Source of the DNA: Eledone cirrhosa
Lineage: Eukaryota
Direction of reading: 5' to 3'
NCBI GenBank assembly: GCA_964016885.1
Contig: OZ024743.1
Coordinates: 36,580,001-36,644,000 of the forward strand
DNA: 64,000 bases
The notes beneath the pieces are model-generated. The model had not been told where the DNA came from and did no database searches. It was given only the letters and a program-made list of their open reading frames with translations. Below are positions 53,252 to 62,362 of this stretch, in pieces (the first letter of the stretch is position 1; each line of letters opens with the position of its first letter). The translations under genes were made by a program, and so were the position numbers.

Positions 53252-53609
53252 TAAATTTAGTCCTTCATCAGTGATCTTCCAACCTTCATTGGTATTTCAT
53301 CGCTTTAAAGACCATATACCTCCGGTTGGTGCGAGCAACGGCTAAAGAAAGTCGTTGGGACACGTAAATAAGGGGAACGAGCGAGACAGTAAACAATCAA
53401 AGATGGTAATGCAACGAAAAGTGAGGAAGAAGGAGTCAAGTCCCTGAAATTGATGAACATAAGTTCTGTGAAATCGTGGACGAGAGAGAATAAAGACCAT
53501 CAAACCTGGTCGAAATGTGAGCAAGGAAAGAATTTTGCACAGGTCAAACGGGAGGAAGAAGGAGTCAAGTCCCTGAAATCGAGAGAGAGGGTGGGGGGGG
53601 GGGGGGTTC

Positions 53610-54300
53610 AGCCAGTATTGGCCCAGGCCATGTCTAACTTAATAGCATTATCTAGCGAAGTCTTTCAGACCATGATTTATAACTCAGTCTTGTTTTGAAC
53701 ACCGTGGCTCACACCAGTAAAGAGTTATTGCTTCTTGAGACACATGCGAAATTTGTTGAAGGAATTTTTTCAAAGACCTTTCAATTTTTATGGGATCAGT
53801 TTCTCTTACGAAGTGTTTTTGTATGATATTTAAGAGAGCAGGACCCGTTGTGGTGAAATAGTTGTGTCGTAACCTTGTTATATGATGCGAGGTCGCTTTT
53901 TTTAGTGGGCGGATAGCAAGGGGATCAAGCTGTGGGTGTATTTTAAAGTTGATGCCAACATCATTTGGGCAATGTTGATGGAATATTTTCCACATCATAC
54001 AAATGATATAGCGTTGGAGAGAATACAATTTGAGATTTTCGAGTTGACCCCAATAAACAAGGTATGTAATTGACCTCTGGGGTGCTTCAGTTTTCATAAT
54101 ACTTTCTTTCGTATGAGGACAACAGTATTCAAGGTGGGGCGGGCAAAGGTAGAGAAGAAGAGGAGGATAATGGTGCAAATATCTCGAGAATGAAAAGTTC
54201 TAAGAATCCAATAATATATCCTGCATGTCAGGTCAACTTTGTTGTTTATGTTGATAATCGACAATTACTCCAACATCTGCGATGCTGTTGGATGCCATGA
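53610..54300 (-). mobile_element. CR1/L2-group LINE 3' fragment, decayed
   Basis: PHLEYCC..LKLYSLQR; homologous to 61090-61810. Confidence 0.75.
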
Positions 54301-54581
54301 AGAGAATATGGTAACTTAAGATACATCCTCTTTAACAAAGAGGATGTATCTTCTTTCAGTGGCATATTTCTTTCTCGCACATTCGTAAAACCGCAAGCAA
54401 ATACGATTGAAGGCTTGGAATCATCTGCGAAGCCTCCTTATTTTAGGTGTGCTTGATGACGTTTGTAATTTGGTTGTTGTTTCTTATTTTTGATACAGTT
54501 GAATTAGCTATATTTCCTGCTTTGTTGGGTGTGGTAGAAGAATGCCATAGTCTAAGAACCAAATTGTATTTTTATAAAGAA

Positions 54582-55225: not shown

Positions 55226-55300
<75 letters not shown>

Positions 55301-55304
<4 letters not shown>

Positions 55305-56250
55305 TTTAAAAGAATAGGACAAGAAACTAAGATAAAACTTTAAAAGAATAGGACAAGAAACTAAGATAAAACTTTAAAGAATTGGACAAGAAATAAAAAA
55401 TTTTACAATAATATTAGTGGCAAAATTTTATTGGTAAAAAATCGAGTTCCACATTCATAGGCTCTGGGTTCCACATTCAGAGGTCGTCGTCAGACCGGGG
55501 GGATCATTTGATCCTGGTTTGAACACCAATTGGGCCATAACCATTTCATCATTCGGCGAAACGCCTCATGTGTCATGCATAATGTGAATGGACCCATGGG
55601 CCCATGAGCACAGATCTTGAGCAGCAGCGGACGGTCTTGTCGTCCCGCTCATCCTTGATCTTGACCAACCCGTCCATCTTCTCCTTGCATCTTGTCCTTG
55701 AGTTCAAGTCCGGCAGTCCAGATGAATGCGTGCCACAGCTTTCTGGTACAGGAAGGGGGAGCAGGAGGACTGGAAGGATGACGGGACAGAGGGAGGGAGG
55801 ACCGGTGGTTGAGGGAGGTGCCGTAGTCGGTGGTCAGAGTCGACATCTTGTCCCGGTCGTCTTCTCCATCTTCGTCTGGTGTTGCGGGACCAGAAGTGCA
55901 TTCTTGGAGGAGATCTGCAGCTGCATCGGCCAATTCTTCTTGCAATGGTCATTCTGACGGAGCAGAACTGCTCAGTCAACCAACCCCAACCAGAACCAAC
56001 CGCTCAGGGGCAACGCACAATGAGAGCATGACAATTATTATGCACTAATCAAGAAGATACTGGGGCATAGCACAGGAAACGAATAAAAAAATGTTGCCAC
56101 TAATATTATTGTAAAATTTTTTATTTCTTGTCCAATTCTTTAAAGTTTTATCTTAGTTTCTTGTCCTATTCTTTTAAAGTTTTATCTTAGTTTCTTGTCC
56201 TATTCTTTTAAAGTTTTATTTTAGTTTCTTGTCCTGTATTTTTAAAGGTT
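55301..56250. repeat. Inverted repeats built of 33-bp tandem units flanking a GC-rich insert
   Basis: 55301-55425 is the reverse complement of 56094-56220. Confidence 0.85.
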
Positions 56251-56574
56251 TATATTCCAACAATATTACTTTTTTTTGCTGTACGCATTTTTCTATCTGG
56301 TCTACTATTTTTTAAGGCAATGCAAGCAACAACTATCTAATAATTAAATGATCATAGTGAATTACTGACAAGTCATTGACATTTTAAAGTTCTTTTGAGT
56401 ATAATTGCAATCTAGTTGAGGCAACTGGCTTAATGACAAAGCTAGTAAATCATGAATGCATTTGAGATGATTAGTGCATAATAGTGAATTGGTGAAACTT
56501 GTGCATTTCAATGGTGTTACAACAATAGATGTAAGTTATATAGTAGTAATACTTTATCATTTTAACTTTTTAGA

Positions 56575-56934
56575 ATGGACAAAAACCCATGCAAAGAAAT
56601 GACTTTGACTGCAGTGATTCTCTCCAATTTACTTACAAAGCAAAACGTGGTCAAATACCTTATCATCTCTGATAAAATGCCCATTGAATCACTGAAAATC
56701 GGATGCATGGAATTCCTCATAAAATGCACCTATGAATCGGAAGCCATCACATATATCAATGGATATAGGGAGTTGTTCACACTAGAAGACCATCACTTCA
56801 TTTGTGACTTCATCAGTTATCTCCACGATTATCTCAGACACCCAATGCCATTGATGAGAGGTGATCCATTGTGTGAGAATGTAACTAATCTTATAGAAGT
56901 TGTTATCGACCACCTGGCTTTTAGTGACATTTGA
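56575..56934 (+). CDS. 119-aa protein with a BACK-domain-like N-terminus
   Basis: LSNLLTKQNVVKYLIISDKMPIESLKIGCMEFL resembles the SPOP-type BACK pattern; preceded by a 43-nt GTAAGT..TTTTAG intron (56531-56573). Confidence 0.5.
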   Translation: MDKNPCKEMTLTAVILSNLLTKQNVVKYLIISDKMPIESLKIGCMEFLIKCTYESEAITYINGYRELFTLEDHHFICDFISYLHDYLRHPMPLMRGDPLCENVTNLIEVVIDHLAFSDI

Positions 56935-57114
56935 CTGATTTGACTGATAATGATGTATTTTTAAAAAGTATGTGTACATTCTTGTTACTATTTTAGGGCA
57001 ATGCAAGCAACAACTATTTAATAAAATTTAAATTTAAAAATGACCATTGTGCATTACTAGTATGATGACATTTTATTAAGTCACACAATTATTCAGTCAG
57101 CCATAGAACAAGGA

Positions 57115-57910
57115 TCAGGTGGCAAAAACATTGGCAAAAATTTGTGTCAATTTAAGATTTCCAACATTGTTCAAATGAATCATATCTGGTTTGAAGTCAG
57201 ATTTGTCAAATTCTGACCAATTTTCAATGTTGTGAAGATTGGGCAATTTCAATTTTTGAATCATTTCTTTCATGCAGTAATTAAACTTTTCCAAACGAGA
57301 ATTTCTCTTGCCCAAGTCATTTTTATTTTCAATTACACTTTGTGGACGTGGAATGACACCACTGTAGAAAATGGGTGTACAGTGGTGCTTTTCCGCTATT
57401 TTCTGAAGCCTTGCAAAGAGACTCTTCCTCTGTTTTTCCGGTTTTGTGCCTCGAATGGGCACTTTGTCCTTAATTTACAAATAAATGATTAATAAAAAAT
57501 ACTTGGGCAAAAATTATTGTATTACTTTGCACAGCTTTGTAGTGCCAGCGGTGCGACGAGGATTCAGATCATTAGAGCCGACATGAACCACCAATACTTT
57601 CACAAAAGGACAACAGATAACAATGTTGGCGATTAACATTACCTGGCCCTGACGAGCCCCAGGTATACAAAATATCTAAGTATTTTTGTTGGTATGATAA
57701 GTAAATACATTTGAATTAATATTTTTATACCTTCTGGTCATTCGATTTCGCCACATTTCTAATTATGAATTTGTAAAAACTGGCATGAATGTGAATTTGA
57801 TCAGTCCAATTGCCCGATTTTAGTGAAAAGTTTTGATTCGAAATGGAAATACTCCATTTCCGTGCCATGGAAAAAATGAATAAGCCGATCAAAAAGCCGC
57901 GAAACATCAT
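57115..57910 (-). CDS. Spliced SGNH/GDSL-hydrolase-like gene, 3 exons, 227 aa
   Basis: Exons 57731-57910, 57526-57675 and 57115-57468 joined by phase-0 GT-AG introns; motifs CIPGA, VVHVGSND, SGVIPR, DMIHLN..G. Confidence 0.75.
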
Positions 57911-59089
57911 TTTTAATTAAGCGAAATTAGTGGATGCAAATCTCAGAAAATATTGTACACTATTTGCACCTATCGCACTATTCGCACCTATTGGTACAAA
58001 AATATAGCGCACTATTCGCACCTATCGGTACAAAAAATCGCACGACTGTTAATAATACTAGAAGTGCAAACTATCTGTTGAATACCTGGTATATGAAGAG
58101 CAACCGATACGATCGGTCGGCGATCGGTCTTGAAGAAGAATGAAGAATGAAGTGAAATTTTGGTCTGGTTGTTGTCATCGGTGTTTCGCAGAGATGCCGG
58201 CACGAACAAAGGTGTCAGTGACACAAAGTTGTCCGCTTGAACAAAGGTGTCGGTCCGACAAAGGTGTCAGTCAGACAGACAGTCAGACAGTGTCACAGTC
58301 GGTGCGACAAAGCGATCGATGCGATTAAAAAAAATTTAACTCACATGTTTACCTATATTTTCGCAAACTATTGATAGATTGGTACAAAAAATAGCTTTGA
58401 TAATAAACATAAATTTTTAGCGAAGTATTTAAAAAGCATTTTAGCAGTGAAAAGTGAAGTAATGTTTCACACTGACGCAAGTAGGGCCGTTCAGAAATGA
58501 CGTAGTCAATTAGGAGGAGATGATTCGGCGATTTGACTACATTTGACTAACGTAATCACAATCACAAGAGTTCCGCCGAAAAAATTCGTCATTTCTGGAT
58601 TACCTCCCCTAGCGTCACGCTTACTACTCACTCACTTGAACACAAGATTTATCAGCAAACTTTGATTATAAACTTTTTCCCGCTGGACCAAATTTCTAGA
58701 TTTTTAAGCCAAAAGATGCGTAATGATCGACTGTTCATGCTCATATAAGTTTTATCTCAATTAAATAAAGTAGAGCCGCGCTGTACCGTCGTAAACAGAC
58801 GATTGCCAACGAAAACACGACCACAACAATATTACTAAACGGACTACCGTCCGTTTAGGATATATATATATATATATATATACATATATGATGGCTGACC
58901 CCTCGTTATCGAATATGGCCATTGCATGATATACCATTATTAATAATTATTAATTAATTCTATCGTGCAATGCCTGTGCATGAAGATGTTTTTTAAAGTG
59001 AGAAAAGACTGTGCACTGAGCCAATCCCACTCTCTGAGCGACAGTAGCTATAACCCGAAAAGAAGAAAAGTTCAACATCATCAGTAACT

Positions 59090-59179
<90 letters not shown>

Positions 59180-59184
<5 letters not shown>

Positions 59185-59599
59185 AAAGTTCTATTTAAAT
59201 TGTTGGGATACAACAAGCAAATATTTTTATAACTGATATAAAGCACTCAACAAATAATTGGAGTAAAAATATGATATTGACAAATGGAAACTATATTTAT
59301 AAAACCATATTTATTTCATTATACATATTTCAAGGACACCAAGTTAAATTATGGTGGGCTTTCATCAGATAAAATATAATATAAAGCAGTTTTATAAATA
59401 AATATTGACATACCCTTAAAGAATGCAACCCTTACTGTAATGGTTGCATTCTTTAAGGGTATGTCAATATTTATTTATAAAACTGCTCTATATTATATTT
59501 TATCTGATGAAAGCCCACCATAATTTAACTTGGTGTCCTTGAAATATGTATAATGAAATAAATATGGTTTTATAAATATAGTTTCCATTTGTCAATATC

Positions 59600-59600
<1 letters not shown>
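59180..59600. mobile_element. Fold-back HHR repeat, family of 4081-4375
   Basis: HHRs at 59312-59376 - and 59496-59560 +; arms 59275-59430 and 59445-59598. Confidence 0.82.
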
Positions 59601-59667
<67 letters not shown>

Positions 59668-59789: not shown

Positions 59790-59834
<45 letters not shown>

Positions 59835-60650
59835 AATTAATATAAATTAATATATGATATACAATAAATTAATACAGTTTTCCTGTCTCGATTTAAAATA
59901 ATAAATCAATAAAAACAAACCCATATTGGCAATAGCCGTGATACCTGGACAAATTTGAATTTCAAAACCCAAATCCGTCTCGCAACAATAAGTGAAAATT
60001 CCATTTCTGTGCTCATCTGCAGGTATCCAGAAATTGGTATGTTTCACCTCAAAATACTTAGGAGGGCTGAGAGAAAAATATGTTTTTGAACGCACATGGT
60101 GTCTCAGCGCCTAGCCAGTCCTATACTCGTGCCGCTAGAAATAACATCCGTTTTTATGGGACTAAAATTTAGCTCAACAAATGGAGCCGTTAATACTATA
60201 TATAGAGTTATAAACTCAAACAGTCTTTTACAATTAAATAACTCAAAGAAAGAGATATTTCTGAGCCGTGAAATACAAATTAATATAAATTAATATATGA
60301 TAAACACTAATACAATTATATAAGTGCTTGTATTGCAAATGACCAAGTTAGCTATATTGAAAAATACTAATTAAATTAATACAGTTTGCCTGTCTCGATT
60401 TAAGATAAAAACCCATATTGGCTATTGCCAATATGGGTTTGTTTTTATTGATTTATTATTTTAAATCGAGACAGGCAAACTGTATTAATTTAATTAGTAT
60501 TTTTCAATCTAGCTAACTTGGTCATTTGCAATACAAACACTTATATAATTGTATTAGTGTTTATCATATATTAATTTACGGCTCAGAAATATCTCTTTCT
60601 TTGAGCTATTTAATTGTAAAAGACTGTTTGAGTTTATAACTCTATATATA

Positions 60651-61089: not shown

Positions 61090-62362
61090 TCGGCCAGTAT
61101 TGGCCCAGGCCATGTCTAACTTAATAGCACCACCACTGGCGAAGTCTTACAAATGAGGGTTTAGGCACCATGGCCCACTCGAGCAGAGAGTTATTGTTTA
61201 CGGAGGCATATCCGGGATTTCTTGAAGGAATTTGTCCAAAGACTTCATGAACTTGATGGGGTCTGTTTCTGCTTTGATGTGTTTTGGTGTAATGTTAAAG
61301 AGAGCAGGGCCAATTGAGGTGAAATAATTGTGCCGTATTGTTGTTATGAGATGCGAGTGAGAGTTTTCTCGTGGGTGGATAGTACGAGGCCCAAGCCTTG
61401 GGTGTACTTTAAAAGTGATGCTAACATTATTTGGGCAAAGCTGATGGAATATTTTCCATATCATACATATAATGTAGCGCTACGGCGACGTTGGAGAGAA
61501 TAAAGGTTGAGCTTTTCTAATCGACTCCAATAGTCAAGGCCTGTCATGCCATCTATCTTTTTTGTAATTGACTTTTGGGGTGCTTCAACTTTCATGATAC
61601 TTTGTTTCGTGTGGGGAGACAACAGTACTCAAGGTGGGGTCAGGCAAAAGTGGAGAAGAGAAGGATAACAGTGTGGATATCTCTCGACTAGAAGGTTCTG
61701 AGAATCCAGGAACACATTCAGCGAGTCATGTCAACTTTGGTGTTTATATGAGTGGCCCAGCTTATGTTGTTGTCCACAATTTCTCCCAGGTCTCTGATGT
61801 TGTTGGATGCCACTAGAGTTTCACCCGAAGGAAGAGAGTATGGTAGTTTTAGGGCATTCTTTTTTCCAAAGTGGATTAATTCACTTATCCTCATTCAGCA
61901 GCATATTATTCTTTTCTGCCCATTGGATAACAGCCAGTAGGTCTGACTGAAGGCAAGGCTGGTCACCCACCTCATTGATGACTCTTTGGAGCTTGGAATC
62001 ATCAGCGAAGATTCTTATGTTGCTGTGTTTGATGATGTCAGTAATGTCATTAATGTAGATGATGAAAAGAAATGGGCCTAACACAGTGCCTTGTGGGACG
62101 CCACTGCTGACTTTGGCAGGGCTTGACTTTACTCCTTCGACTACAACATGTTGGGTTCTGTCTGTGAGGAAACATTTGATCCACTGTAGTAGCTTTCCAG
62201 AGACACCAATATTGGGTATTCTTTTTCAGTAGAATCTTATGATGAACCCTGTCAAAGGCCTTGCTGAAATCAAGATAGATGACATCAGTGTTGGAGCTCT
62301 CTCCCAAGGCTCTCAAAACATCGTTAAAGTGATGCAGGAGCTGCGTTAGGCAGTCCCTTCCA
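61090..62362 (-). mobile_element. CR1/L2-group LINE RT and 3' end, frameshifted
   Basis: [20 protein letters not shown]; [19 protein letters not shown]. Confidence 0.88.

Follow-up and report, generated by a model that had tools for sequence, protein, structure and literature searches.

Helitrons are recognized by a transposase that combines a Rep (HUH) domain with a Pif1 helicase (RepHel). Elements of the Helitron1 type (HLE1), such as Helraiser, start with 5'-TC, end with CTRR-3' and insert between A and T; they lack DUF6570 and possess a short hairpin 11 nt from the 3' end, which in Helraiser acts as a pause signal (PMC4778049). DUF6570 is a marker of the HLE2 clade, where the usual target is T|T. 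Helentrons, HINEs and DINE-1 belong to this clade and have an AP endonuclease, subterminal repeats of 12–15 bp and many deletion derivatives with internal tandem repeats (PMC4067079). In the publications consulted, the mechanism by which HLE2 elements start and stop is taken from the HLE1 element Helraiser.

Closest to the elements analysed here are two HLE2 systems. The HLE2-reverse elements FoHeli3-5 of Fusarium (PMC5148889, PMC11417382), 9–11 kb in length, resemble ours in encoding a DUF6570 RepHel, in a 5' stem-loop that lies external to the left inverted repeat and in their asymmetric repeats of 13–16 bp, with the 3' copy 20–40 bp from the end and no 3' hairpin; no target preference is established for them there. 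Proto-Helentron-Pi of Phytophthora (PMC4067079, PMC11417382), cargo-bearing and of about 14 kb, is similar in that its HLE2 transposase has no endonuclease, its 3' end is CTAG and it inserts at A|T without target duplication, and also in its 5' stem-loop and inverted repeats of ~12 nt; proto-Helentron is the published exception to the T|T target of HLE2 (PMC4067079). The two systems are themselves separate, their layout has been reported from fungi and oomycetes, and the HELIANO survey of 404 genomes recorded nothing similar to proto-Helentron-Pi (PMC11417382).

Our reading, to which we give a probability of about 0.85, is that a block in the window (the whole stretch of DNA analysed, 64,000 nt) descends from an HLE2 Helitron by an internal deletion that took away the transposase, is likely mobilized in trans by longer members and has a 1.1-kb tail that may serve as its stop signal. 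It belongs to one of three families (A, B and C), all of which have the HLE2-reverse/proto-Helentron layout, with a 5' hairpin beside a repeat of 12–13 bp. TC/CTRG ends, a strict A|T target, a RepHel that ends in UCH, an apparently animal host and an inverted duplicate of ~200 bp of the 3' end distinguish them from FoHeli3-5. Proto-Helentron-Pi, unlike them, starts with TT, has its stem-loop 3.6 kb from the left repeat and carries SET and TIR as cargo. They share HLE2 membership, short subterminal repeats and numerous repeat-containing deletion derivatives with Helentrons, HINEs and DINE-1, but have neither the AP endonuclease nor the T|T target, and the hairpin lies at the end upstream of RepHel. 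Of the Rep motif 2 signature of Helentrons, they show the preceding F/Y-x-R (as YFWR) but read RGAPH in place of RGSPH. In starting with TC, ending with CTRR and inserting at A|T the families agree with HLE1, from which they differ in possessing DUF6570 and asymmetric repeats and in lacking the short hairpin 11 nt from the 3' end.

With these families the layout would be known also from what is apparently an animal genome, judged from its size and repeat content and from the named RepHel relatives, and NADAR would join the known Helitron cargoes; the copy in the window is, taken alone, an unremarkable derivative laden with passengers. They form a natural series, with three age classes, many deletion types and one family of ~100% identity, which makes the question of the terminator directly testable. 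The literature searched contained no report of NADAR as Helitron cargo, of the HLE2-reverse/proto-Helentron layout with A|T targets in an animal or of the inverted 3' tail, but the family may already have an entry in Repbase or Dfam.

Organization of the window copy

The block (55298–58860, minus strand) is a non-autonomous derivative of family A, of a 3.64-kb type, from which the last ~81 nt at the 3' end are absent by comparison with other genomic copies. It is bordered on both sides by (TA)n, as stated in the original prediction, where it was also called microsatellite-free; tandem 34-bp repeats are present in it. The element starts with TC (58859–58860) after a minus-strand flanking A, and the T and C are found in 66/66 and 65/66 copies, respectively. 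The predicted terminal hairpin (58835–58858), with a 10-bp stem and a 4-nt loop, is well supported (z = −4.0; none of 200 shuffles was equally stable). The 5' copy of a 13-bp asymmetric terminal inverted repeat (ATIR) occupies 58824–58836. It is followed by the RepHel leader (57869–58823), a possible promoter, which is CpG-rich and holds repeated motifs as had been noted: the observed/expected CpG ratio is 1.46 against 0.47 in the gene part, and two CGCACCTAT..GGTACAAAAA repeats lie at 57971–58002 and 58005–58036 (57971–58036 in all). One copy of CGCACCTAT is retained in family B.

Codons 1–33 of RepHel follow (57770–57868), the same N-terminus that opens the RepHel ORF of two longer copies (L075 and L077). 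The prediction that no transposase or reverse transcriptase (RT) is present thus holds apart from this remnant, which makes up most of what had been read as exon 1. Next (57731–57769) come the junction of a deletion of some 9 kb, which is also a loose end in contigs of DNA runs, and the remnant of a NADAR/SGNH exon that begins right after the deleted GDS. Beyond it lie an exon (57526–57675) with what we take to be the Gly of block II and the GSND of block III of SGNH hydrolases, and a last SGNH exon (57115–57468) with a DxxH motif, a Lipase_GDSL_3 match below cut-off (E = 0.0033) and an ESM Atlas assignment to the GDSL clan. The converging plus-strand ORF of 119 aa is present (56575–56934), as antisense BTB/BACK-like cargo between 34-bp direct repeats at 56310–56343 and 56991–57024.

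The last 1.1 kb comprise an inverted copy of the 3' end, a loop and the terminus, an inverted repeat (55298–55432 against 56085–56219) that the original prediction had missed. The internal inverted copy (56085–56300, plus strand, ~215 bp) contains an ATIR copy (56258–56270) and 34-bp tandem units, and its end coincides with the terminal CTGG, after which comes a T. The loop (55433–56084) is of 652 nt and ~52% GC, has no Pfam match and shows no relationship to its counterparts in families B and C. The terminal arm (55298–55432, minus strand) is clipped before the 3' ATIR and CTGG end; the arms are 99% identical, and in other copies the repeat reaches the very end of the element.

Decayed LINE-like RT fragments, presumably of a LINE family, flank the block on the minus strand (53600–54460 and 61090–62250). 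Other long-armed inverted repeats between (TA)n tracts occur at 59162–59603 and 59800–60650 of the window and also flank other loci.

Copy number and deletion derivatives

In a search of the 3.0-Gb genome, the best 40 of 734 candidates were scored and, apart from the window itself, are 96–99% identical to the query. Exact matches number 315 for the hairpin end (control 0), 420 for the internal arm junction and 879 for the arm end. The median divergence of 41 family A copies from one of them (L004) is 1.4%; most of the first 20 copies keep the whole block. The dispersed copies have unique flanks. The block is a young dispersed repeat of several hundred copies. The single-copy host gene that had been offered as an alternative is contradicted by this dispersal. 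The suggested copy-number check gave shared termini and longer copies with Rep/Hel.

Forty copies chosen by the hairpin only fall into a deletion series of ~3.6, 2.35, 1.9 and 1.5 kb. Recurring breakpoints at 2329 and 2405 (of 3640) fall just short of the internal arm at 2548, and even the 1.5-kb derivative retains the entire 3' cassette of arm, loop and arm. The deletion types define minimal ends of ~250–275 nt at the 5' side and the whole 1.1-kb cassette at the 3' side. The block has both ends around an internal deletion and is a unit transposed as such; the idea of a mobile sequence with a larger, gene-carrying parent was correct, but not that of the block as one end only.

A solitary hairpin end of ~30 nt without further element sequence was seen at L045:302–335. 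Two long copies have a second 5' end at an identical point just past Rep motif 2 (L060:5417 and L065:5184).

Termini and insertion sites

On the minus strand, A precedes TC in 66/66 copies and T follows CTGG in 55/57, the 57 including two family B copies with CTAG ends; the T|T target usual in HLE2 is not seen. Among the empty paralogous sites listed, those of four loci (L008, L030, L050 and L052) show a gap of 0 and no target-site duplication. There are exceptions, which count against our main reading: one locus (L017) has a 48-nt flank duplication and three (L006, L009 and L056), with AT-rich flanks, have non-zero gaps. (TA)3 adjoins 22/66 and 27/57 of the two ends compared with 20% of AT sites in the window, a bias too moderate for strict (TA)n targeting, which we rejected.

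The 13-bp repeat just inside the hairpin recurs ~31 nt from the 3' end. No stable short 3' hairpin was detected by shuffling (z = −1.2). Families B and C share the A|TC start and the 4-nt hairpin loop and end with CTAG|T; their hairpin stem is altered yet paired, and the ATIR changes together with it (its length is 12 bp in family C and 13 bp in the other two). The TC start, CTRR end and A|T site are common to all three.

We take the TC end to be the probable origin, with the polarity assigned by analogy. The polarity could be the reverse, the CTRG end being the origin on the other strand, the hairpin end the terminator and the whole an ordinary HLE2 element with an inverted ORF. Such a polarity is that of IS91, and, read the other way round, the ATIR, hairpin and end resemble the Helentron 3' end. 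An inverted RepHel orientation is known in HLE2 (PMC5148889, PMC4067079), and Helraiser RepHel cleaves both strands of the CTAG end in vitro (PMC4778049). Nevertheless, TC and CTRR at A|T fit the sense-strand rule of Helitrons in all three families, and 13 of 20 long family B loci have at least two hairpin ends upstream of one 3' end, which weakly discriminates in suggesting pass-through. We consider the reversed polarity unlikely.

Parent elements and the RepHel transposase

Three longer copies (L060, L067+068 and L077+078) have family A ends together with DUF6570, Helitron_like_N, PIF1 and UCH, and are thus Rep–Pif1 elements that share their ends with the block. L060 runs on from the hairpin end into the RepHel ORF. 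The other two show the order of parts: hairpin end, RepHel, a predicted spliced gene, the antisense BACK-like ORF and the inverted tail, with an estimated length of ~12.8 kb. DUF6570 is matched in the parents with E values of 2.7e-13 and 1.5e-12, and the RepHel ORF terminates in UCH without an endonuclease. The label Helentron-like in the original prediction is therefore apt for a Helentron-related element; a strict Helentron is contradicted by the missing endonuclease, the A|T site and the 5' hairpin. No unbroken RepHel was found among 12 long copies checked, so that the donor of the transposase was not seen, a further point against the main reading.

These RepHel-bearing parents refute the readings of the block as a host gene, as the end of a Penelope or CR1/L2 retroelement or as an assembly artefact, which we regard as practically out of the question. 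SGNH domains are known in CR1 elements and Terminons (PMC4021074, PMC6431247), and the original prediction had pointed to such accessory domains of CR1/L2 and some Penelope elements; this block has no such link. There is no RT in any parent examined, and an Rfam scan gave no match at gathering thresholds, neither a ribozyme nor a hammerhead. Hundreds of dispersed copies with unique flanks do not fit a host gene or an artefact, and one and the same fusion junction was met in 28 copies as well as in the run contigs.

A RepHel probe returned 32 rows: 25 at 95% identity or above, two at 85–86% and five (four loci) at 64–69%. Rep motif 2 is RGAPH with YFWR, and the replacement of S by A is shared by 42 of 116 motif-bearing homologues. 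The nearest relatives have DUF6570, often with UCH or OTU; among the 120 matches listed, endonuclease-bearing proteins first appear at rank 92. A quick helicase tree of 114 rows, from which FoHeli3-5 and proto-Helentron-Pi were absent, unites families A–C (SH-aLRT 100) and sets them apart, across a branch with 97% support, from the endonuclease-bearing proteins. Near the start of RepHel in families A (L060) and B (L081) there is a motif, GCVELNPGP, that is presumably 2A-like; similar motifs occur in eight of the 120 homologues.

Cargo genes

The open three-exon reading proposed originally stands as a frame (57868–57731, 57675–57526 and 57468–57115, minus strand; GT-AG introns of 55 and 57 nt, phase 0, 213 aa), but not as an intact SGNH gene. 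In the window type the ~9-kb deletion joins RepHel codon 33 to the residues following GDS. Since it removed the GDS serine, the nucleophile, the product is, judged from its sequence, a chimera that is likely inactive. Among 33 copies with the junction exon, a sample biased to the window type, 28 are fused and five keep GDS; SGNH blocks I, II and III and DxxH are all present in 5/33, and the window copy lacks block I.

In the parents, exons 1–3 match only NADAR (PF08719), in profile order (4–67, 82–115 and 118–162) and with scores of 18.7, 15.8 and 13 bits, each under the cut-off of 35.1. The third exon reads on into IVGDSIIR, and the NADAR and SGNH exons are predicted to form one gene downstream of RepHel. 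A genome scan for NADAR, with four candidates scored, returned two, both inside a family A element. A database search with NADAR exon 1 gave no match, PDB sequence searches with two NADAR exons gave chance matches only, and the last SGNH exon matched nothing among longer proteins or 1.84 billion representatives. Runs X1 and X4 behave as DNA, with no intron-skipping joints.

The last SGNH exon is open in 31 of 36 copies and the BACK frame in 39 of 48, rates that approximate to those that youth alone would give. The 119-aa ORF falls into BTB/BACK clusters of the ESM Atlas at 0.91 and has no Pfam BACK match; its AlphaFold model (pLDDT 39) is unusable, and we treat the BTB/BACK identity as a lead only. 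A donor host gene was not seen, the best 150 of 304 candidates all being 95–100% identical. The SGNH chimera and the BACK-like ORF are likely passengers of the window copy.

SGNH in Helitrons (PMC4021074) and NADAR in retroelements (PMC12477816) are already known. By description, the texim genes of fish Helitrons are likewise intron-bearing SGNH genes carried as cargo (PMC4021074), and NADAR is an accessory domain of Gypsy and Tx1 retroelements (PMC12477816); here, in contrast, the two stand in one predicted gene after RepHel. The HELIANO supplement (PMC11417382) mentions none of NADAR, GDSL, SGNH and BACK. None of NADAR, SGNH and BACK was found in 30 family B loci, 10 family C loci and six long B/C stretches; in the copies examined only family A carries them, and the other two families have spread without NADAR–SGNH. 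NADARs strip ADP-ribose from guanine in DNA (PMC11125620); a protective role of the cargo would be speculation.

Related families and the inverted 3' tail

The RepHel DNA of the related families is 85 and 65% identical. Family B gave at least 40 loop matches of ~100% identity and family C at least 40 rows of 86–97% apart from the query. In every family the 3' end is repeated internally in inverted orientation, from the terminal base on, and the distances of this internal copy from the end (1093, 1115 and 1130 nt, respectively) give the length of the cassette. Within a family the arms match closely (208/214, 189/192 and 133/136); between families they differ, and the loops of A, B and C are unrelated to one another. 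The cassette was found in 51 measured family A copies, in 31/31 family B cassettes (30 loci) and in 10/10 family C loci, those of B and C having been picked by their loop. Hairpin-picked family A copies have the internal arm in 36/40 cases by motif and 37/40 by BLAST; in L024 and L056 the terminal arm is present but the internal arm is missing.

Arm changes in family A are seven shared, 77 internal-only and 106 terminal-only, and the arm-length correlation is weak (rho = 0.21, p = 0.14). The arms mutate independently, so that re-copying at every jump is not visible and was rejected. Nor does the loop flip routinely in the way known from rolling-hairpin replication: it is inverted in only 1/66 family A and 1/31 family B cassettes (2/97), and this reading was also rejected.

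The terminal inverted repeats of ~215 bp might suggest that the 1.1-kb unit is a separate foldback element or MITE captured at a Helitron end. Free units, however, are not in excess (879 arm ends against 420 internal junctions, which leaves 459 other arm ends), and the arms contain the Helitron's own ATIR, which changes with the family; a separate element is very improbable.

The main rival to a functional tail, doubtful but to be taken seriously, is that it is a relic of self-insertion in the opposite orientation, its arms kept alike by occasional gene conversion, with only the last ~50 nt being of consequence. On the opposite strand the sequence at the internal end is CTRG|T, as an insertion would give, and opposite-orientation self-insertion has been proposed (PMC5148889). 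The loop inversions point to recombination between arms, and the missing internal arm of L024 and L056 also fits a relic. It accords less well with a cassette length held across three families in which the loop is wholly replaced, with the full cassette of the 1.5-kb derivative and with the 420 internal junctions against 459 other arm ends.

Proposed mechanism

By analogy with Helraiser (PMC4778049), RepHel of longer family members would nick at A|TC in trans, displace one strand, cut at CTRG, join the circle and insert it at AT. Pairing between the final ~200 nt of the displaced strand and the inverted copy inside the element might then produce a stem that reaches to the terminal base and would stall the helicase. 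As there is no short 3' hairpin, we infer that the long arm pair may be the pause signal; that the fold-back tail is a terminator replacing the missing hairpin has, in our judgement, somewhat less than an even chance. The amplified deletion types keep the cassette and breakpoints 2329 and 2405 precede the arm, which argues for it, while L024 and L056 and the independent mutation of family A arms after insertion argue against it. A favourable fold-back energy is to be expected of every long inverted repeat and does not speak for a function. Inverted self-insertion and a fold-back terminator can both hold, the one as origin and the other as use.

More tentatively still, the families may represent an animal HLE2 lineage with Helitron1-type ends (A|TC...CTAG|T), in which a 1.1-kb fold-back cassette replaces the short 3' hairpin, the arms are kept matched and the swapped loop is a capture slot, possibly with a self-priming end. 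The NADAR–SGNH product of one family could then strip ADP-ribose from the single-stranded intermediate.

Other features of families B and C

The ~100% identity of family B over at least 40 loci indicates that it is very recent. The helicase region of both its long copies (L081:650 to L082:1853 and L083–L084) is interrupted by the same single in-frame stop, and RepHel of the first is otherwise open over 1904 + 507 codons. In 13 of 20 family B loci (L101–L120), extra 5' hairpin ends, mostly of 260–266 nt, lie upstream of the main one. Six loci share a spacer of ~500 nt cut at differing A|T points. The family B loop (L082:971–1585) holds an open frame of 205 aa with a Cys/His cluster and no Pfam support, the ending of which we take to resemble those of LINE ORF1 proteins. 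Right after a family C RepHel there are two tandem parvovirus-like endogenous inserts (L088:4002–9811 and L087:900–1400; G000:C12, minus strand), with two Parvo_NS1 ORFs (E = 5e-18 and 1e-16) and a PLA2-like domain.
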